Both the position numbers and the translations under genes were made by a program. DNA of 64,000 nucleotides from Patescibacteria group bacterium. GTDB taxonomy: Bacteria; Patescibacteriota; Patescibacteriia; UBA1558; GWA2-36-10. This document shows positions 1 to 54,740 of the stretch, piece after piece. Within the stretch, counting starts at the first letter, position 1; each line of letters begins with the position of its first letter. The notes below the pieces were generated by a model. That model was not told the origin of the DNA. It saw nothing but the letters and a program-made list of their open reading frames with translations, and searched no databases. The stretch lies in contig JBAYIR010000001.1 in the NCBI GenBank assembly GCA_041665505.1, positions 220,392-284,391 on the forward strand, read 5' to 3'.

Positions 1-912
1 TATGCTGGTATTTTTCCTCATGAAGGCGGTGAATATCAAAAATTAAGAGAAGCTATATTAAAATTAAAATTAAGCGACGCTAGTTTGGTTTTTGAACCAG
101 CTAGTTCTTCAGCTTTAGGTTTTGGTTTCCGTTGTGGATTTTTAGGCTTATTACATTTAGAAATATTTCAAGAGCGTCTCAGTCGGGAGTTTAATCTGGA
201 GTTGATTGTGACTATACCAACTGTGGCTTATCATATTTATTTAAATAATGGTAAAAATGAGGTTTTAACTACACCTTCAGAAATGCCTGATGTTACCAAA
301 ATTGCTTATATTGAGGAGCCATATATGCATATTGAAGTTATTACTCCCAAAGAACATATGGGAGGCTTAATGGAGTATGTAATATCTCAAAAAGGAATTT
401 CTAAAGATACTGAGTATATTGATAGTAATCGTTTAATACTCCGTTTTGATATTCCCTTGGCTTCTATCTTGGTAGATTTTTATGATAATATAAAAAGTAT
501 ATCATCTGGTTATGCTTCTTTAAATTATGATTTTGCTGATTATAGAAGATGCGAGATAGTTAAGATGGATATCTTGGTGGCGGAAAATCCAGTGGAAGCC
601 TTGACCAGTTTAGTTTATAGAGATGAGGCGCATAGAGTAGGTAAACGGATTGTTAGTAAATTAAAAGAAGTTTTACCTCGTCAACAATTTGTTATTAAAA
701 TTCAGGCGGCGATAGGAGGCAAGATAGTAGCTGGTGATAAATTATCTGCGCTTCGAAAAGATGTAACAGCCAAATTGTATGGTGGTGATGTCACTCGCAA
801 GAGAAAATTATTGGACAAACAAAAAAAAGGCAAAAAGCGTATGGCCCAAGGAGGAAAAGTAGAAATACCGCAAGAAGCCTATCTAGCTGTGCTTAAAAGA
901 GATTCTTCTTAG
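1..912 (+). CDS. lepA: Elongation factor 4 (LepA), C-terminal part; the gene starts upstream of the window
   Basis: The frame stays open from position 1. The translation (YAGIFPHEGGEYQKLREAILKLKLSDASLVFEP...ALGFGFRCGFLGLLHLEIFQERLSREF...) matches the conserved LepA C-terminal domain. Confidence 0.85.
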   Translation, partial: YAGIFPHEGGEYQKLREAILKLKLSDASLVFEPASSSALGFGFRCGFLGLLHLEIFQERLSREFNLELIVTIPTVAYHIYLNNGKNEVLTTPSEMPDVTKIAYIEEPYMHIEVITPKEHMGGLMEYVISQKGISKDTEYIDSNRLILRFDIPLASILVDFYDNIKSISSGYASLNYDFADYRRCEIVKMDILVAENPVEALTSLVYRDEAHRVGKRIVSKLKEVLPRQQFVIKIQAAIGGKIVAGDKLSALRKDVTAKLYGGDVTRKRKLLDKQKKGKKRMAQGGKVEIPQEAYLAVLKRDSS

Positions 913-1544: not shown

Positions 1545-2024
1545 ATGTTGCCAGGAAAAAATTTAGAACAACAAAATATTAGTCCTGAACAATTCAAAGC
1601 TATTGACAAATCAGTAGAAAATTCTTTAGATTCTGGAAAAATAGAGCGAAAAATTATAGCGCCAGCTCAGGAAAATTATAACAATCAAACTCCAACATCA
1701 GTAGTTATACCAGAAGAGCATAATGCAGTTGTTCCCAATAATCAACAAATTATTCATCGGCAAGTAGAAAATGTATTGTCCGCTGGTATGGAAAATGTAT
1801 TTTTATCATTAGACGCTGGTTTGCAGAGGGATTTTAAGCTAAAAGGGGAAGAAACTTCCAATAAAATTACTCTTCTATTGATGCAGACCAAGATAAAAGT
1901 TAGTGCCATTACTAAGCTTATTTTAGAGTGGCTTCGCATTATTCCCAAAATAAATAAACATTATCTAGAACAAGAGGCTAAAATAAAAACAGATAATATA
2001 TTAAAAATAAATCAACAAAAATAA
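1545..2024 (+). CDS. Hypothetical protein
   Basis: ORF of 159 aa lying in the same direction as neighbouring genes. No motif was recognised. Confidence 0.35.
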   Translation: MLPGKNLEQQNISPEQFKAIDKSVENSLDSGKIERKIIAPAQENYNNQTPTSVVIPEEHNAVVPNNQQIIHRQVENVLSAGMENVFLSLDAGLQRDFKLKGEETSNKITLLLMQTKIKVSAITKLILEWLRIIPKINKHYLEQEAKIKTDNILKINQQK

Positions 2025-2027
2025 AAA

Positions 2028-4490
2028 ATGAGTGATTATTTTATTATTGGCATAATTTTATTAATTGGGATTATTATTCTCATAGCTTTGTTTTATTTTG
2101 CTTTCAACCATTCTAGAAGTAGAAGTAATAAAAATCTTCAATCCGAAGTGTTGTTATTAAAAATTCCCAAATATATAAAATCGGAAAAGGAAGAACACAG
2201 CAAAGAATTTGTCCAAGCTGAATTAGGGCAAGTAGAAAACTTATTTGCCGCTTTGAGTGGTCTTAAAGCGCAGAGAAAATTTTTTGGTAGGCGGACAGAT
2301 ATTTTTTCTATAGAGATTGTCTCAGTTGGAGGCTTCACGAATTTTTATGTAGCCACACCAAGTGTTTATAGAGATTTTTTGATTCAACAATTGCAAGCTG
2401 TTTATCCAAAAATATATTTTGAACCAGTTAGTGATTATAATATTTTTCAAGCACAAGGTCATATTAAAGCTGGTGCCCTTAATTTTAAGGGTGATTATAG
2501 TCTGCCAATTAAAACTTATAAGTATTTTGAAAATGATCCTTTAGAGGCGGTCACTAATTCCCTAAGCAAATTAACTGTCAATGAAGGTGCGGCTGTCCAG
2601 TATGTATTTCGGTCGGCCCCTGCTAAATGGCATGCTCGGGGTAGAAAAATAGCACAACAAATGCACCGTGGTATGACTTATAGAGAGGCTATAAAGAAAA
2701 TTGGCGGCGGCGGTTTCTGGGGTAATACGTCTCAGGTATTCAAATTTTTTGCTAGTTTTTTGACTACCAAAGATCCAAAAAAAACTGACCCAGATCAAAA
2801 CGAGCCACCACAGCCAATGTCAGCTATGGAGCAAGAGCGAGCTAAAGGTATGGAAGAAAAAACTTCTAAATCAGGGCTAGAGGTAAATATTAGAGTGGTA
2901 GTTTCTACAGCTAATCCAGAGAGATCTAAAGCTATTTTAAATGATATTTTAAATAGTTATAGTCAATATAATATTTATGAGTTTGGTAATAGTTTTAGAG
3001 CCTATATTCCTAGTAAAGCTGACTCTTATGTAGAACATTTTATTTATCGTCATTTTCTTCCTCAAAAAAGTATGCTCTTAAACTCTGAGGAAATGACTAG
3101 TGTGGTTCATTTGCCTTTAACGACTAGTGAAACACCAAATATTGCCTGGCTGGAAGCGGCTAAAGCAGCTCCACCGGTTAATATGCCGACAGAGGGAGTA
3201 ATACTTGGCAAGAGTTTTTATCGTGGCAGGGAAACTTTGGTTCGTATCAAAGATGCCGATCGTCGTCGACATATGTATGAAATTGGTCAAACTGGTACTG
3301 GTAAATCAGTATTTTTGGAAAGTCTAGCCATTCAAGACATTGCTAATGGTAAAGGGGTTTGTGTATTAGATCCACATGGTGATTTAGCTGAAACTATTTT
3401 ATCTCATGTGCCAAAAGAAAGAGCAGAAGATGTGATTTATTTTGATCCCTCAGATGTTCAAAGGCCAATGGGTATTAATATGTTGGAATTTGAAACAGAT
3501 GAACAAAAAACTTTTGCCATCAATGAAATGATAGCTATTTTTGATAAGTTGTATGATCTCAAAGCTACTGGTGGTCCAATGTTTGAACAATACATGAGAA
3601 ATACCATGTTGCTTTTGATGGATGATAAGGAAAACCAAACCACTTTATTGGAAATTCCAAAAGTTTTAGCTGACGAGAGTTATAGAAAACAAAAATTGGC
3701 TAAAGTAAAAAATTATTTAGTCAAGGACTTTTGGGAAAAAGAAGCACAAAAAGCAGGTGGTGATGCGGCCTTAGCTAATATGGTACCTTATATTACTTCC
3801 AAATTAACTCCTTTTATAGCCAATGACACTATCCGTCCTATAATATCTCAAAGTAAATCGGCTTTCAATTTTAGGAAGGCTATGGACGAAAATAAAATTA
3901 TTATTATTAATCTATCTAAAGGTAAAATTGGTGAGATGAATAGTAGTCTCTTGGGAATGATAATGATTGGTAAAATACTTTTTGCAGCCCTTAGCCGAGT
4001 AGACCTACCAGAAGAGAAAAGACAAGATTTTTATCTTTATATTGATGAGTTTCAAAATTATATTACGGAGAGTATTTCTATTATTTTATCTGAGGCTAGA
4101 AAATATAAATTAAATTTAATATTAGCTCATCAATTTTTAGCACAGTTGGTTAAATCTAAAGATAGAGATACTGGAGTAAAAGATGCTGTCTTTGGTAACG
4201 TCGGCACATTGATTGCCTATCGAATTGGAGTAGAGGATGCTGAGGTAATAGCCAAACAAATGGCGCCAGTTGTGACGCAATATGATTTGGTTAACATGCC
4301 AAAATATACTTGTTATATAAAATTATTAATAGATAACCAAAATCCACCTGCTTTTAATTTTAATCCTATTATGCCAGAAAAAGGCAATTATGAATTGGCT
4401 AAGGCTATCAAAGAGTTGTCACGCCTTAAATATGGTCGGGATAGGCTTATAGTGGAAAATGAAATAAAACAAAGAATGTCTATAATCTAA
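2028..4490 (+). CDS. VirB4/VirD4-like conjugation/T4SS-type P-loop ATPase (FtsK-HerA superfamily) with an N-terminal TM domain. This is the fused form of the split pair at 16264-19538
   Basis: There is an N-terminal TM helix. Walker A is RRRHMYEIGQTGTGKS, followed by a VLDPHGDL motif, Walker B LYIDEFQNY and AHQ. The N-terminal 400 aa aligns with ORF 16264-17754 and the C-terminal part with ORF 17757-19538. Confidence 0.7.
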   Translation: MSDYFIIGIILLIGIIILIALFYFAFNHSRSRSNKNLQSEVLLLKIPKYIKSEKEEHSKEFVQAELGQVENLFAALSGLKAQRKFFGRRTDIFSIEIVSVGGFTNFYVATPSVYRDFLIQQLQAVYPKIYFEPVSDYNIFQAQGHIKAGALNFKGDYSLPIKTYKYFENDPLEAVTNSLSKLTVNEGAAVQYVFRSAPAKWHARGRKIAQQMHRGMTYREAIKKIGGGGFWGNTSQVFKFFASFLTTKDPKKTDPDQNEPPQPMSAMEQERAKGMEEKTSKSGLEVNIRVVVSTANPERSKAILNDILNSYSQYNIYEFGNSFRAYIPSKADSYVEHFIYRHFLPQKSMLLNSEEMTSVVHLPLTTSETPNIAWLEAAKAAPPVNMPTEGVILGKSFYRGRETLVRIKDADRRRHMYEIGQTGTGKSVFLESLAIQDIANGKGVCVLDPHGDLAETILSHVPKERAEDVIYFDPSDVQRPMGINMLEFETDEQKTFAINEMIAIFDKLYDLKATGGPMFEQYMRNTMLLLMDDKENQTTLLEIPKVLADESYRKQKLAKVKNYLVKDFWEKEAQKAGGDAALANMVPYITSKLTPFIANDTIRPIISQSKSAFNFRKAMDENKIIIINLSKGKIGEMNSSLLGMIMIGKILFAALSRVDLPEEKRQDFYLYIDEFQNYITESISIILSEARKYKLNLILAHQFLAQLVKSKDRDTGVKDAVFGNVGTLIAYRIGVEDAEVIAKQMAPVVTQYDLVNMPKYTCYIKLLIDNQNPPAFNFNPIMPEKGNYELAKAIKELSRLKYGRDRLIVENEIKQRMSII

Positions 4491-25507: not shown

Positions 25508-25632
25508 AACTATATAAGTATAGCATAAATTTGCTTTTTATTAATAGACTTTGTTATGCTTGAAATTATAAAATAGAGAAAGAGGAGACGCCCTAAGACG
25601 CCTCCTCTTACATATAGCTCAGGCTATTGATG

Positions 25633-25845
25633 CTAAATAGCCTTGAAGTTGCCCCAACCATTCCAAAGAGGCTGACCATGACGATCCCGCTGAGAGTCTA
25701 CCTGTATGAAAACGTCTTGGATGCTAGTCAAACCCCATCCAGCCAGAATTTCACGAGGTGGGTCTTTGCGGATGCCAGTGATAATATGAATCTTGCCACT
25801 ACCAATGGCTTTGACTTTCTGACCCTTTTTGAATTCACAAGGCAT
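25633..25845 (-). CDS. Small hypothetical protein (70 aa)
   Basis: Perfect SD AAGGAGG 7 nt upstream of the ATG. Lies in the GC-rich island. Confidence 0.5.
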   Translation of the reverse strand: MPCEFKKGQKVKAIGSGKIHIITGIRKDPPREILAGWGLTSIQDVFIQVDSQRDRHGQPLWNGWGNFKAI

Positions 25846-25869
25846 TTTCTTTCCTCCTTGAGCTGGAAG

Positions 25870-25901
25870 GCATGTGGTGTGTGAGAGAACAAAAAAGTCG
25901 C
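25870..25901 (-). terminator. Hairpin plus U-tract in the 5' leader of the small ORF (terminator or attenuator)
   Basis: On the minus strand, GTCGCTTAG-cagt-AAGCGAC followed by TTTTTT, located just upstream of the RBS. Confidence 0.45.
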
Positions 25902-26107
25902 TTACTGCTAAGCGACGAACTGGTATTTAATATAAATTATAGACTAAATAACAAATCACCACTTAACAATATAAGGGTTGTACCAAAAGAAGAAAAAATT
26001 TGGCTTGATTTGTCTCATAAAATATATATTATAATATTTTATTCAATTTGGCAAGTAACTTAAAAAAGAGCTTTTTTAAAAGCTTATATTTTTGATTAAT
26101 TTTTTGA

Positions 26108-26142
26108 GTGCCTGCCTCATCACGCTAAAGGTGACGAGGCAG
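26108..26142 (-). terminator. Stem-loop immediately 3' of the hydrolase gene
   Basis: 14-bp stem GCCTGCCTCATCAC/GTGACGAGGCAGGC with one mismatch. A second small hairpin plus U-run follows at about 26055-26075 on the minus strand. Confidence 0.45.
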
Positions 26143-26152
26143 GCTCAAGACT

Positions 26153-26833
26153 TCAGACGTCCGCTATGATGCGGTCGCCGTATTCACGACGGAAGGAGTT
26201 GATTTGCAGAAGCAGAGCCTCCAAGAGATGTTCTCCAACATAGATTCGAGTTGGAGACTGCCAGTGTGAGGACTGCTCCATGAGCTCCAAGAGGTATCTG
26301 GCCAAAGGCACATATTCGCGAATGGTTTCGTTTATTTGCTTGATTTGAAACTCTGGGTCAGCCTTGAATCCCAGAGTGCGAAGATTGGCTACCCGATCAG
26401 CTAGTTTGAGAATAATTACCTCAATACTGCCAGCTTCTCGCATTTGACGGATATAAGAAAGCTTATCCCGCTTATAATCTTCGCCTTTACTCAAAAGTTC
26501 AACCCAATAGCGGACTGTGGAGCCAAAAAGCCTCTCAATCTTGTCCAAGCTGAGTTTGTCAGCCTCTACAGCATCATGAAGCCAAGTCACAACATTCATC
26601 TGCCAGTCGTCTTTGATACCCAGTTCGCAGCTGACTAAATCAGCTACATCACGCAGGTGTTTGAAGTAGTAGGTGACACCATCACCACGATACTCACCAC
26701 GGTGAGCCCATTTCCCCAGACGGTAGGCGCAGACCATCAAGCGTGCTTCTTCAGGGTCATTGATGTAACCCTGAAAACGAACCAAATAGCGTTCGTAGCC
26801 GCGCATTTCCTCAGGTTTTTTTCTGACTTTCAT
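26153..26833 (-). CDS. HD-domain (p)ppGpp hydrolase, SpoT/Mesh1-type small alarmone hydrolase
   Basis: LHDAVED and KLADRVANLRTL match the RelA/SpoT HD hydrolase motifs. Strong SD AAGGGGGT before the internal Met (MKVRKK), so the start was trimmed from the ORF-track coordinate 26869. Distinctly higher GC than the genome. Confidence 0.7.
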   Translation of the reverse strand: MKVRKKPEEMRGYERYLVRFQGYINDPEEARLMVCAYRLGKWAHRGEYRGDGVTYYFKHLRDVADLVSCELGIKDDWQMNVVTWLHDAVEADKLSLDKIERLFGSTVRYWVELLSKGEDYKRDKLSYIRQMREAGSIEVIILKLADRVANLRTLGFKADPEFQIKQINETIREYVPLARYLLELMEQSSHWQSPTRIYVGEHLLEALLLQINSFRREYGDRIIADV

Positions 26834-26947
26834 GTTCGTTACCCCCTTGTTGACGTGAATTGTAAACAACCAAAGTTAATGTCAATAGTTATACTATAGT
26901 CCAAAATTAATGTCAAACATATATTTGTTGATAAATTAGCTAAAATA

Positions 26948-26977
26948 TTGACATAATATCTTTTTTTGTTCTATTAT
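26948..26977 (+). promoter_or_regulatory. Sigma-70 promoter (TTGACA-18-TATTAT)
   Basis: Consensus boxes upstream of an ORF-free GC-rich unit. Confidence 0.55.
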
Positions 26978-26983
26978 TTAAGG

Positions 26984-27346
26984 GTATCTAGAAGTTCCAT
27001 TTTCAAAATCCATCGTGGTTGTAGAAGTCCTAGGAGGGGAAGAAAGAAGCGACTCAATTAGGGAAGATGACCATGATGGTAGACCATCAAACTACGAAGT
27101 TAAGTAGAGGCGCCTGAACGTCTGCCAAACGACGGCCCTCTCCAGCCAATTAACTTCCTGCTTTGATGGTCATCCTTGGATGACTGCTGCTGTGAGCATC
27201 ACGTGTGAGTATCACGCCGAGCTCTCGCCTTCGGCATAGGTGGTGTTTTGCTCAACCCGAGCTTAAGTTCTAAGTCCTCAGCCGCTTGTAGCAGCAGCAT
27301 CCATGGATGAGCCCCCGGTCCGTACTGGGGGCTCGCTTTCTTTTTT
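26984..27346 (+). ncRNA. Candidate structured ncRNA A (about 360 nt), class unknown
   Basis: No ORF of 60 aa or more on either strand despite high GC. Long-range complementarities include CCTTGGATGACTGCTGCTG with CAGCAGCATCCATGG, and GATGACCAT with ATGGTCATC. There is a UUCG-type tetraloop (GCCTTCGGC). It ends in a strong terminator: a 10-bp GC stem at 27309-27334 followed by TTTCTTTTTT. Confidence 0.5.
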
Positions 27347-27359
27347 AAAATTTATACTA

Positions 27360-27388
27360 TTGACATTAACTATAAAATAAGCTATAAT
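27360..27388 (+). promoter_or_regulatory. Sigma-70 promoter (TTGACA-17-TATAAT, perfect consensus)
   Basis: Located immediately after the terminator of unit A. Confidence 0.6.
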
Positions 27389-27394
27389 ATATAA

Positions 27395-27647
27395 TCCTTT
27401 CGTTTTTTGTAGCCATGAGCTAATAAGCTAATGGGTCGCCGGTAGGTAACTCCAGGTCGTTGTAAGGGCACCCTCCTTCAATGACTGCCACCACGCCTGT
27501 CGGCGACCCAGTTAATAGTTGGACCTTGGGCTGGGAAGCATATTCCCCAGCACCACTAGCCGAGCTGAGCTGAGCGGAAAACTCAGTCCAAGGTCCACCA
27601 CCTTTTGCCCTGCCAGAAGATCACTTCGGCAGGGTCTTCAATTTGTC
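27395..27647 (+). ncRNA. Candidate structured RNA B (about 250 nt); possibly a cis-regulatory leader of alaS or an independent sRNA
   Basis: 9-bp helices GGGTCGCCG/CGGCGACCC and GGACCTTGG/CCAAGGTCC, plus internal hairpins (CTGGGAA-gcata-TTCCCAG and CTGAG-cggaaaa-CTCAG). Ends in the terminator-like hairpin CCCTGCC...GGCAGGG followed by a U-rich tail. About 85 nt upstream of alaS. Confidence 0.45.
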
Positions 27648-27732
27648 AAAATTAATTGACTTTTTAGCTTAAATTTATTAAAATATATAAGTATTTACTA
27701 TAAAAGTAGTAAATTTTTTCCAATAAACAATT

Positions 27733-29502
27733 ATGACTAGCCAAGAATTAAAAAACAATTTTTTCCAATATTTTCAGAGCAAAGATCATACTTTGATTAG
27801 TTCTGCTTCTTTGATTCCAGAAAATGACCCCACAGTATTATTTACTACTGCTGGTATGCATCCTTTGGTCCCATATTTGATGGGTGAAAAACATCCTGCT
27901 GGTCTGCGTCTGGTTAATGTTCAAAAATGTCTACGCACCGGAGATATTGATGAGGTAGGGGATGCTACACACCATACTTTTTTTGAAATGCTTGGTAATT
28001 GGTCTTTGGGGGATTATTTTAAAAAAGAGGCTATTGAATTTTCTTGGGAATTTTTAACTGAGATATTAAAACTAGATAAAAATAAATTAGCTGTTAGTGT
28101 CTTTGCTGGAGATGATGATGTTAGTCGTGATGAAGAAAGCTCTCAGATTTGGCAAAGCATTGGCGTTAGCAAAATTGCTTATCTTGGTAAAAAAGATAAT
28201 TGGTGGGGCCCAGCTGGACAGACTGGTCCTTGTGGTCCAGATACTGAAATATTTTATTGGACTAGTAGTGAGTCTGTACCAGATAATTTTGATCCAGAAG
28301 ATAAACGCTGGGTAGAAATCTGGAACAATGTCCTGATGCAATATAATAAAACTATTAATGGCCAGTATGAGCCACTGAATCAAAAAAATATTGACACTGG
28401 TATGGGTCTAGAAAGGACTCTAGCTGTTTTAAATGGTCTAGATGATAATTATTTGACTGAACTTTGGCAGCCGATTATTAAACAATTAGAAAAATTGTCA
28501 GCTAAAAAATACGGAGATGATAAAAAATCTTTTCGTATTGTAGCTGATCATATCAGGAGTGCTGTATTTTTGATGGGTGACCCTAGAGGTATTGCTCCGG
28601 CCAATAAAGATCAAGGTTATGTACTGCGTCGATTAATCAGACGAGCCATTCGTTTTGCTAAATTATTGGGTATAGAACAAGATTTTTGTGTATCCTTAGC
28701 TCAAGTGATTATTGATTTATATAAAATAGATTACCCGGAATTAGAAACAAATCAAAAATTTATAATTGATGAATTAGCTAAAGAAGAAAATAAATTTAGT
28801 CAGACGATTGAAAAAGGTATTAAAGAATTAGAAAAATTAGTAGACAAAAATTTGCTCAATGAAAAAGAAGCTTTTCAACTTTTTGCTACTTATGGCTTTC
28901 CATTAGAGATGACTTTGGAATTAGCTAAAGAAAAAGGCTTAAATTTGTCTGAAAGTAAATATCAAACAGAATTTAAACAACACCAAGATTTATCTCGCAC
29001 CGCTTCAGCTGGTATGTTTAAAGGTGGTTTAGCTGATGATAGCGAAATGGCCACCAAATATCATACTGCTACTCATCTTTTGCACCAAGCACTGCGTAAT
29101 GTTTTAGGTAATCATGTGGAGCAGCGTGGTTCTAATATCAATGCTGAGCGCTTACGTTTTGATTTTGTACATCCTGATCCAATGACCGCAGAGCAGATAA
29201 AAAAAGTAGAGGATATTGTCAATCAACAAATTCAATTGGCTTTGGCAGTTACTTGTGATGAGATGTCAGTAGCTGAAGCCAAAGAGCAGGGAGCAATTGG
29301 ATTATTTGATAAAAAATACGGAGAAAAAATAAAAGTATACACAGTTGGTCCAAACTCCTCAACCAGCTCGGAACCTCCTTTTAGTCGGGAAATTTGTGGT
29401 GGTCCACATGTCAAAAATACTAATGAATTAGGTAAATTTAGTATCAAAAAAGAGCAGTCTTCTTCAGCTGGTATCAGACGTATAAAAGCGGTGTTAGAAT
29501 AA
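27733..29502 (+). CDS. alaS: Alanine--tRNA ligase, short form (catalytic plus editing domains; lacks the C-terminal C-Ala/oligomerisation region)
   Basis: Class II AlaRS N-terminus (FTTAGMHPLVPY), WGPAGQTGPCGPDTEI, and editing-domain HxxxH (HTATHLLHQALRNVLG). Only 589 aa. Confidence 0.85.
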   Translation: MTSQELKNNFFQYFQSKDHTLISSASLIPENDPTVLFTTAGMHPLVPYLMGEKHPAGLRLVNVQKCLRTGDIDEVGDATHHTFFEMLGNWSLGDYFKKEAIEFSWEFLTEILKLDKNKLAVSVFAGDDDVSRDEESSQIWQSIGVSKIAYLGKKDNWWGPAGQTGPCGPDTEIFYWTSSESVPDNFDPEDKRWVEIWNNVLMQYNKTINGQYEPLNQKNIDTGMGLERTLAVLNGLDDNYLTELWQPIIKQLEKLSAKKYGDDKKSFRIVADHIRSAVFLMGDPRGIAPANKDQGYVLRRLIRRAIRFAKLLGIEQDFCVSLAQVIIDLYKIDYPELETNQKFIIDELAKEENKFSQTIEKGIKELEKLVDKNLLNEKEAFQLFATYGFPLEMTLELAKEKGLNLSESKYQTEFKQHQDLSRTASAGMFKGGLADDSEMATKYHTATHLLHQALRNVLGNHVEQRGSNINAERLRFDFVHPDPMTAEQIKKVEDIVNQQIQLALAVTCDEMSVAEAKEQGAIGLFDKKYGEKIKVYTVGPNSSTSSEPPFSREICGGPHVKNTNELGKFSIKKEQSSSAGIRRIKAVLE

Positions 29503-54480: not shown

Positions 54481-54509
54481 TTGACAAATACATAAACATA
54501 TGCTATTAT
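54481..54509 (+). promoter_or_regulatory. Sigma-70 promoter (TTGACA-17-TATTAT)
   Basis: Consensus boxes precede an ORF-free GC-rich segment. Confidence 0.5.
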
Positions 54510-54515
54510 TCTTTT

Positions 54516-54740
54516 TGTGCTGAAAAAAATCAGCCTGTACAGTTTGAAAAGTTGGCCTCTGGTTTAGACGTGTATTTAACGGGAGCGCATAACCACATCT
54601 GTGGATCTTGCGTTACTGTTACGCGCTAAATCGGCAAAGCCACTTTCAAAGCTCCCTCCACGGGGAGCATTCATCCTGGCCCACGGGCTGGGGTGAAAGA
54701 GGGGGTCCCAGGCCCAGTCGGGACCCTCTTTTCTTTTTGT
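54516..54740 (+). ncRNA. Candidate structured sRNA (about 225 nt), class unknown
   Basis: GC-rich with no ORF. Nested helices GGGAGC...GCTCCC and AGCGCATAAC...GTTACGCGCT. Strong terminator at 54699-54729 (GGGTCCC/GGGACCC) followed by TTTTCTTTTT. No + strand gene lies downstream. Confidence 0.45.

Follow-up and report, generated by a model that had tools for sequence, protein, structure and literature searches.

A large structured RNA, probably of a new and lineage-restricted family, upstream of alaS-hpf-secA in a Patescibacteria genome

Patescibacteria, also referred to as the Candidate Phyla Radiation (CPR), account for a large share of bacterial diversity and have minimal genomes whose RNAs have hardly been explored; a literature search found no paper on lineage-specific structured RNAs in this group. 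Which kind of gene, then, occupies a GC-rich stretch of about 360 nucleotides (nt) between a divergent HD gene and alaS-hpf-secA in the genome of one Patescibacteria group bacterium (GenBank assembly GCA_041665505.1, contig JBAYIR010000001.1, positions 220,392 to 284,391; these 64,000 nt, numbered from their first letter, are here called the window)? An earlier note on this sequence had proposed a structured RNA of unrecognized class, here named RNA A. In this study, we closely examined the locus and its relatives. RNA A is very probably a real, selected and structured RNA that stands alone and founds a new family, which is absent from Rfam 15 and limited to a narrow lineage of Patescibacteria.

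The promoter of RNA A on the plus strand (26948-26977) consists of TTGACA (26948-26953), an 18-nt spacer and TATTAT (26972-26977) and matches the consensus at 11 of 12 positions. GGG follows at 26982-26984, 5-7 nt beyond the -10 hexamer, so the consensus promoter ahead of a G-rich start that the earlier note had described was confirmed. The predicted transcript comprises about 363 nt (26984-27346, plus strand), with its ends set by promoter and terminator. An intrinsic terminator (GAGCCCCCGG/CUGGGGGCUC, inverted repeat I12) with a U-run closes it at 27309-27346 (plus strand); its stem-loop (27308-27335) has 12 pairs, eight of them G-C, and is followed by CTTTCTTTTT, in agreement with the strong terminator claimed before. 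The body has a GC content of 0.50 in an AT-rich genome (33% GC in the window), as had also been stated. In related loci, the promoter architecture is kept in L182 (identical), L169 (TTGACA-18-TATTCT) and L180, and the terminator in L182 and L169 with the changes C-G to U.G and G.U to G-C. From this strong sigma-70-type promoter, RNA A would be transcribed independently, and transcription would end at the intrinsic terminator.

The next promoter 3' of the terminator belongs to a second RNA gene, RNA B (12 of 12 consensus positions), and alaS has a separate promoter that is conserved in all relatives. Since two more promoters lie between RNA A and alaS, RNA A is a stand-alone gene and not a leader. 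That RNA A might act in cis on RNA B and alaS, as a leader or attenuator of the type of a T-box-like tRNA sensor, would be suggested by the same-strand position upstream of an aminoacyl-tRNA synthetase gene and the terminator at the end, and also by the alaS spacer being a hot spot of RNA genes in this lineage, where long RNA-bearing spacers recur (median spacer over 147 alaS loci, 67 nt). However, neither T-box nor riboswitch families matched (T-box: none at E ≤ 10), the strong 10-bp GC stem of the terminator has no evident conserved antiterminator pairing, and other alaS loci lack RNA A. T-box leaders are marked by a stem I with specifier loop, a T-box sequence with a UGGN bulge, competition of terminator and antiterminator and direct control of the synthetase gene that follows. 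With the promoters of RNA B and alaS in between, we rejected a T-box leader and regard any cis-acting role as very improbable.

Folding of the plus strand of RNA A gave a minimum free energy (MFE) of -142.8 kcal/mol versus -109.4 ± 4.9 kcal/mol for dinucleotide shuffles (z = -6.8); for the minus strand of the region z was -4.5, and for the L169 homolog -4.9. The fold consists of three consecutive domains, all on the plus strand. Domain 1 (27010-27079, covariance model R1) is formed by helix H1 (27010-27020/27069-27079) and the inner helix H1b (27028-27031/27061-27064), which enclose the conserved unpaired motifs AGGAGGGG ... AAAG ... AGCGACUCAA at 27032-27057. These resemble a Shine-Dalgarno (SD) sequence and, superficially, conserved region I (CR-I) of RNase P RNA. 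Invariant and unpaired are 10 nt of AGCGACUCAA and 8 nt of AGGAGGGG; AGCGACTCAA and GGAGGGG are common to the window, L182 and L169, and a related GGAGGGGATCCTAAAAGCGGCTC is present in L005. GG/CC of domain 1 in the window is AA/UU in L169.

Domain 2 (27082-27171) is a long, irregular 90-nt hairpin, H2, supported by inverted repeat I3 and the MFE fold, with a conserved apical GUC-YGCCA...GAC. Five double-compensated pairs distinguish it from L169, and all five substitutions between the window and L182 fall on consensus-unpaired positions. Domain 3 (27172-27308), found in the MFE fold and the alignments, has a multibranch interior closed by the long-range helix H3 (ACUGCUGCUG.../...CAGCAGCAG). 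In the MFE fold, H3 comprises inverted repeat I11, that is ATGACTGCTGCTG (27180-27192) with CAGCAGCATCCAT (27292-27304; 13 nt, 85%), a 1-nt bulge and the adjacent palindromic TCCTTGGA/TCCATGGA. The long-range complementarity noted earlier is real and forms H3; its outermost part as claimed (CCTTGGATG/CATCCATGG) exists in the window and L182 only and not in L169. Domain 3 is 97% identical to that of L182 (four of its 137 nt differ, including a change of G.U to G-C), and in L169 a U-A pair of H3 has become C-G twice. Within it lie the small conserved hairpin Hx (27250-27262, GCUC-AACCC-GAGC), which reads GCCC-AAUUC-GGG in L169 with a compensating change of U-A to C-G and has GCCC-AAUUCC-GGGC at the equivalent place in L005, and an unpaired UCCUC (27275-27279) conserved in the window, L182, L169 and L005. 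From the fold model, this UCCUC and the GAGGG of the 5' motif (27035-27039) are inferred as a candidate pseudoknot. A UUCG tetraloop had been suggested as well, but GCCUUCGGC (27227-27235) cannot make a canonical C(UUCG)G closed by more pairs; in the fold it forms a 3-bp stem with a triloop, which is not conserved in L169. A possible closing stem pairs AGAAG (26990-26994) with the U-tail (27337-27341) in an uncurated RNAalifold alignment of three sequences (columns 7-11 with 389-393, paired in all three), a purine tract facing a U-tract and hence weak evidence.

A search of 167 alaS and HD loci with RNA A using nhmmer and blastn gave matches in L168, L169 and L182 only. The sequence in L168 is identical and comes from the same organism. 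L182 (3262-3623) matched with an nhmmer E value of 3.5e-102; its RNA is 93.9% identical and its alanyl-tRNA synthetase (AlaRS) 92% identical. The more distant L169 (41-431, minus strand; E = 5e-18) has an RNA of about 65-76% identity and an HD protein of 68% identity. In both L182 and L169, the homolog occupies the slot between the divergent HD gene and alaS-hpf-secA. Scores of model R1 were 111.7 bits for the window, 114.8 for L182 and 82.9 for L169, where model R2 also hit the expected position with 14.2 bits. A scan with R1 of alaS and HD neighborhoods from 180 loci, about 1.4 Mb in all, added no other member. Relatives with conserved sequence thus exist, as collecting homologs had been meant to establish, and they are confined to a few related Patescibacteria contigs, which bears out the proposal of a lineage-specific RNA. 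In L005 (3937-4352, minus strand; HD 53% identical), an RNA in the same slot has the same domain order and shares the short motifs CCAUCG, GGAGGGG..AAAAGCGGCUC, ACUGCUGC/GCAGCAG, GCCC-AAUUCC-GGGC and UCCUCC, and its covariance-model scores (R1, 9.8 bits; R2, 6.3 bits) were not above noise. Going by these motifs, it is possibly a distant analog of RNA A.

Comparison of the window with L182 revealed how strongly the RNA is constrained. Identity at four-fold degenerate sites is 70% for alaS, 77% for HD, 66% for greA and 64% for secA, versus 93.9% for the RNA. Because the RNA is far more identical than these sites, the substitutions indicate that the whole of RNA A is under purifying selection, like first and second codon positions. 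Five of the 21 substitutions fall on consensus-paired positions, which make up 42% of the RNA, and four of these five leave pairing intact (two of U.G to C-G, one of G.U to G-C and one of C-G to U.G). No conserved open reading frame (ORF) was found in RNA A, with at least three stops per frame in the window, L182 and L169, although no BLASTX-type search of a big protein database was made. The longest stop-free stretches measure 33-58 codons, and none is shared among the three. With stops in all frames, no shared ORF and compensatory substitutions in the helices, we rejected a protein-coding gene or pseudogene.

In a structure-guided, hand-curated alignment of the window with L169 (H1, H1b, H2 sub-helices, H3, two inner hairpins and the terminator), 50 of 77 pairs are the same, nine have changed on one side and fifteen on both sides with pairing kept, and three are broken. 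In control alignments with the 3' partners slid by 1-3 nt, only 21-42 were paired, with 0-4 double changes. The same helices and the closing stem were returned by RNAalifold from the raw MAFFT alignment of three sequences, with 14 double-compensated pairs, and when domain 1 was aligned by fitting to the model, 95.6% of cells were paired, versus 22-55% with slid partners. Together, the stable fold, the compensatory changes and the lack of a conserved ORF uphold the proposal of a structured RNA.

Is RNA A a known RNA in disguise? Rfam 15 detected only tRNA-Gln in the whole window at the gathering score, and relaxed searches at E ≤ 10 of 26700-27800 and of the isolated 373 nt returned noise only, as did the L005 RNA at E ≤ 10 and seven related loci at E ≤ 3. 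The class therefore stays unrecognized, as first stated, and the failure to match RNase P RNA, transfer-messenger RNA (tmRNA) and signal recognition particle (SRP) RNA holds for motifs, topology and Rfam alike. For tmRNA, ARAGORN at default settings found neither a tRNA nor a tmRNA in the RNA A region, and RNA A has neither a T-arm nor a CCA end, which in tmRNA belong to a tRNA-like domain with G3:U70 in the acceptor stem, next to a tag reading frame. At a 70% threshold, a permuted 'tmRNA' was called inside RNA A; its tag, APERLPNDGPLQPINFLL, falls within helix H2 and has not been kept in L169. tmRNA was rejected on these results, and SRP RNA because no family matched at E ≤ 10 and the domain IV helix 8 motif, with its GNAR tetraloop and conserved symmetric and asymmetric loops, was not seen by eye.

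RNase P RNA demanded closer inspection. Type A RNase P RNA (RF00010) is similar to RNA A in length, and a purine tract of RNA A (GGAGGGGAAGAAAG...) recalls J3/4-CR-I. The tract GGAGGGGAAGAAAGAAGCGACUCAAUUAGGG/GGAGGGGAAGAAAGAAGCGACUC resembles the sequence GGAGGGGAGGAAAGUCCGGGCUCCAUAGGG of Escherichia coli M1 RNA near CR-I/P4, which serves as a lead only. In RNase P RNA, the 5' strand of P4 in CR-I (AGGAAAGUCC) and its 3' strand in CR-V (ACAGAAnCCGGCUUA) together form the P4 pseudoknot. RNA A differs in that AAAGUCC, the 3' strand of P4 and CR-II to CR-V are absent: at the place of the near-invariant AAAGUCC it reads GAAGAAAGAAGCGAC, without GUCC, and no 3' strand of the type ACAGAA...GGCUUA was found in it. 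The sole complement of AAAGAAGCGA within RNA A is UCGCUUUCUUU in the terminator, and this pairing is lost in L005. The CR-I-like tract lies in the loop of the local hairpin H1 (27010-27079), which closes 15-30 nt later and is followed by independent domains; it is thus incompatible with a P1/P2/P4 topology that encloses the whole molecule. The tract is also absent from the slot RNAs of more distant relatives. RNase P RNA was rejected on these grounds.

A diverged housekeeping RNA, RNase P RNA or tmRNA, missed by the Rfam models would fit the size of 363 nt and the relaxed ARAGORN call. Moreover, CPR RNase P RNAs can evade Rfam, as shown by 10 of 35 CPR genomes in which they fell under the Rfam thresholds (Lui et al., PMC8172020). 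Models RF00010, RF00011 and their relatives gave no match at E ≤ 10, a result to be read knowing that CPR copies can score as low as 5 bits, below what the tool lists (PMC8172020). Against a housekeeping RNA stand the motifs and topology described above, the lack of any RNase P, tmRNA or SRP match at E ≤ 10, the unconserved tag and the loss of the CR-I-like motif in relatives at 49-58% HD identity. Of all explanations considered, this one appears the least probable.

The earlier note had alternatively pointed to a large phage-associated RNA of the GOLLD/ROOL type. GOLLD, ROOL and OLE are, like RNA A, large RNAs of intricate fold and open function that were first noticed from sequence alone. 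Their length is roughly 580-800 nt, and GOLLD and ROOL frequently lie in prophages or tRNA clusters. RNA A differs from them with its 360 nt, the absent Rfam match and the lack of prophage context and phage matches; 50,697 phage and 72,556 plasmid records gave no blastn match, a pattern scan of IMG/VR (AGGAGGGG..AAAG..GCGRCTC) gave seven matches, all by chance in GC-rich coding DNA, and a search of IMG/VR viral contigs for AlaRS found none. GOLLD and ROOL are both in Rfam, and neither matches. The suggestion was dropped, given the length of 363 nt and the syntenic chromosomal locus. An origin from a mobile element or phage on an integrated island would be in line with the GC-rich island at 25576-27675 in a genome of 33% GC and with the variable alaS spacer, which in L009 is a GC-rich block of small unknown ORFs. 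Such an origin appears very unlikely, as no integrase, tRNA target or repeats flank the locus and the synteny is stable among relatives.

Two further catalogued systems were considered and rejected. The raiA motif RNA gave no Rfam match, and the architecture of RNA A lacks its P3a-P3b/P4, PK1 and PK2 core. The other is the TIGR array, an RNA system found in CPR bacteria and phages (PMC12045711). RNA A and RNA B have no internal direct repeats, and the scanned neighbors gave no Nop-domain match.

The slot of RNA A is bounded on one side by the divergent HD gene and on the other by alaS (27733-29502), hpf (S30AE family) and secA, in the order A, B, alaS, hpf, secA. The stand-alone HD gene (26153-26869, minus strand) is SpoT/Mesh1-like, of the ppGpp-hydrolase type, with matches to Pfam HD_4 and to the Rel/SpoT hydrolase domain and MESH1 in the PDB. 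The proteins of the locus are deposited at NCBI as MFA6466475.1 (AlaRS) and MFA6466474.1 (HD), both under 'MAG: Patescibacteria group bacterium'. Among 5.8 billion proteins the HD protein has only 11 relatives, and none was found in the genome-contig collection. The order greA-(pilin)-HD, spacer, alaS-hpf-secA is common to the contigs that carry HD and close AlaRS relatives. GC content at third codon positions (GC3) in the window is 0.51 for HD versus 0.23 for alaS. Across L182, L005, L010, L171, L169, L007 and L170, HD GC3 ranges from 0.43 to 0.62, with alaS there at 0.22-0.32; the high values persist among relatives that share just 49-68% identity, and the exceptions are L002 (0.38) and L181 (0.24).

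Between the divergent promoters of HD and RNA A, the control region contains a conserved operator-like motif of putative function at 26926-26934, read from the sequences as TGTTGATAA in the window and TGTGGATAA in L169, L001 and L005. TGTGGATAA is a perfect complement of the DnaA box in these three loci; there is one mismatch in the window and one or two across the window, L182 and L180. A replication origin was rejected, since the box is single, without a cluster or a turn in GC skew. Judged by its place and sequence, the motif may be a shared operator of HD and RNA A.

An alternative is that RNA A serves the HD hydrolase next to it as cognate RNA, be it regulator, substrate or antidote, in an imported module like ToxN/ToxI or IscB/omega-RNA. 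In its favor, the divergent layout with a shared control region of about 110 bp and the operator-like motif is found in the window, L182, L169, L180 and L005, and a promoter-plus-terminator RNA lies beside HD in 9 of 12 HD-bearing loci. The GC-rich island at 25576-27675 comprises HD, both RNAs and a 70-amino-acid (aa) ORF, the sole such islands in this part of the genome, and the HD GC3 is alien in nearly all relatives. Furthermore, L008, the closest genome without HD, also lacks RNAs upstream of alaS. However, the adjoining RNA differs by lineage, with no motif common to all, while HD stays 49-68% identical; L183 has an RNA of about 430 nt upstream of alaS (3500-3925, plus strand) without an HD gene, and L007, L170 and L181 have HD without a GC-rich RNA. 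PADLOC found no defense system for HD or its neighbors. HD_4 hydrolases act on nucleotides, and none is known to depend on RNA. We regard an HD partnership as unlikely.

A base-pairing regulatory small RNA (sRNA), in which a conserved unpaired tract is the seed for mRNAs, is slightly less likely still. Its usual anatomy, a stand-alone gene with promoter and Rho-independent terminator, is that of RNA A, and the 10-nt AGCGACUCAA and 8-nt AGGAGGGG are invariant and unpaired. RNA A is, however, 3-5 times longer than typical sRNAs and under selection over its whole length. Complements of the tracts showed no enrichment in the 64-kb window (4 versus 2.0 expected and 7 versus 7.4 expected), and none of them lies at a translation start. 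RNA B as a pairing partner was rejected, because the 8-bp complementarity of RNA A to it (GCGACUCA:UGGGUCGC) is broken in L182, where the change in RNA B is compensated inside RNA B. Constraint over the whole length together with long invariant unpaired tracts is typical of ribonucleoprotein (RNP) and tertiary-structure RNAs such as 6S, raiA and OLE, and not of seed sRNAs.

Taken together, the overall best explanation, and one we hold to be rather probable, is that RNA A is a new lineage-restricted, trans-acting structured RNA that would function in folded form by binding a protein or the ribosome. The independent strong signals, the constraint over the whole length, the multi-domain junction and the long invariant single strands point to a folded particle that would act in trans, and not to a leader or antisense RNA. 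The invariant tracts AGGAGGGG, AGCGACUCAA and UCCUC would either lock the fold by a pseudoknot or bind a protein or ribosome partner. RNA A may then sequester its partner or serve it as a scaffold, as in 6S, CsrB, raiA or OLE RNAs; by analogy with these, we tentatively suggest a protein- or ribosome-binding scaffold or decoy, a mechanism that is less likely than not but the likeliest of those considered.

Several points weigh against this explanation. Only three distinct sequences are at hand, two of which are 94% identical, and hand curation tilted the full-length structural alignment towards structure. The covariation score of domain 1 was reached by 126 of 500 shuffles, which is not significant with three sequences. 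With three distinct sequences only, the covariation is suggestive and short of statistical proof: the compensatory pairs that a covariation analysis was to reveal are present, formal significance was not reached, and conservation of the structure is, from the alignments, well indicated rather than statistically proven. The GAGGG and UCCUC tracts never vary, so that their pseudoknot can only be inferred. Finally, relatives at 49-58% HD identity hold unrelated RNAs in the same slot, which argues against a universal housekeeping role of RNA A.

Among described RNAs, the closest parallel to the proposed folded, trans-acting RNA is the raiA motif RNA (ModT; RF03072) of Bacillota and Actinomycetota. 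Like RNA A, it is a stand-alone, single-copy, highly structured RNA of a few hundred nt with its own promoter and terminator, has conserved single strands prone to form pseudoknots and an open biochemical function, and lies near a ribosome-hibernation gene (raiA/hpf, S30AE) and secA (PMC10861870). It differs in architecture, since a conserved closing P1 with GU/GGU bulges joins its 5' and 3' ends and its core consists of P3, P4, PK1 and PK2 (PMC12968392), whereas RNA A has three consecutive domains and other motifs. Moreover, raiA RNA is found in more than 2,500 species and RNA A in three contigs of one lineage, and alaS parts RNA A from hpf. 6S RNA and CsrB/RsmZ are abundant RNAs that act in trans by mimicking what a protein binds, an open promoter in 6S and SD-like GGA motifs in CsrB, and RNA A likewise shows the invariant SD-like AGGAGGGG in a loop. 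Unlike these, it has no long hairpin with a central bubble, no repeated GGA hairpins and no Rfam match.

RNA B would be transcribed from its own perfect promoter (27360-27388, plus strand; TTGACA-17-TATAAT) in tandem right after the terminator of RNA A. Its body of about 255 nt (about 27395-27650, plus strand; 53% GC) is unrelated to RNA A, has an MFE z of -5.8 and contains a terminator-like hairpin at 27606-27638. It consists of two long hairpin domains, the first with an anti-SD-like loop CACCCUCCUU and the second with a 9-bp stem, ACCACC and then a CCCUGCC...GGCAGGG hairpin. L182 encodes a homolog (E = 2.6e-62, 84% identity) with the compensations G-C to A-U and C-G to U-A; the 3' part was found in L088, and B-like RNAs are present in L171 and perhaps L010. 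There was no Rfam match to RNA B, and a covariance model for it was dropped, as MAFFT misaligned the distant copy.

In other members of the lineage, the alaS spacer carries different RNAs. L002 (4615-4880, minus strand), L003 and L004 each have one unrelated promoter-plus-terminator RNA of about 300 nt, L010 has two (3478-3640 and 3680-3880, plus strand), and L171 also has two (130-720, minus strand), the second of which is B-like. Short modules recur among these slot RNAs, namely GAGCUGAGCUGAG and, recognized by eye, a stem plus ACCACC and CCCUGCC...GGCAGGGUCU terminators; their recurrence suggests recombination or duplication in a rapidly evolving RNA-gene cassette. L010, a Parcubacteria metagenome-assembled genome (MAG; JABHSK010000007), additionally has a stand-alone RNA gene of about 260 nt with its own promoter and terminator about 600 nt from HD (1620-1906, minus strand). 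The core of this RNA (1679-1764, 86 nt) copies the L1 stalk of 23S rRNA almost perfectly (large subunit rRNA positions 2128-2213), with 54.9 bits and thus more than the gathering score, and the gene adjoins neither rplA nor rplK. By its sequence, this RNA could be an L1-binding or tRNA-elbow-binding decoy.

A farther-reaching explanation is that RNA A is the founder of an undescribed class of large multi-domain Patescibacteria RNAs in a fast-diversifying, highly expressed 'translation-mimic' cassette upstream of alaS-hpf-secA. RNA A would contribute the SD mimic, RNA B the anti-SD-like CACCCUCCUU loop and the stem-ACCACC end, and the L010 RNA the L1-stalk copy. By binding to ribosomal subunits, ribosomal proteins or tRNA, they would tune or shut down translation in ultra-small symbiotic cells. 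We consider this quite improbable, less so than a role as cis-acting leader and more so than a seed sRNA.

Further features were observed in the window and related contigs. A third RNA gene, RNA C (54481-54740, plus strand; RNA at 54516-54740), has an extended-TG promoter (TTGACA-17-TATTAT), a body of about 220 nt with GC up to 0.59, an MFE z of -7.3 and a terminator AGAGGGGGUCCC...GGGACCCUCUUUUCUUUUU; no Rfam family matched it at the gathering score or at E ≤ 10. The 70-aa ORF of the GC-rich island (25633-25845, minus strand, within 25580-25916) has a GC content of 0.50, a terminator of its own (25609-25580) and a strong ribosome-binding site (AAGGAGG), and no match in Pfam, NCBIfam or PADLOC. 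Near its position relatives encode a membrane protein of 131-134 aa, which the window lacks. The long alaS spacer of L035, another Parcubacteria MAG, contains repeated palindromic GTCATCCTGA...TCAGGATGAC elements and a perfect DnaA box TTATCCACA (3500-3800); these elements look like miniature repeat elements rather than homologs of RNA A or RNA B.

The claim made here is a modest one, as the family is tiny so far and orphan lineage-specific noncoding RNAs are common. Nevertheless, one 64-kb window contains three GC-rich structured RNAs (A, B and C) with strong promoters and terminators and without an Rfam family, and a GC-rich island between a consensus promoter and a terminator offers a search recipe for AT-rich uncultured genomes. 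Large bacterial RNAs constrained over their whole length have repeatedly proved to be ribozymes, RNP scaffolds or sequestering RNAs. That a reduced genome keeps such constraint on an RNA of 360 nt probably indicates an important use.

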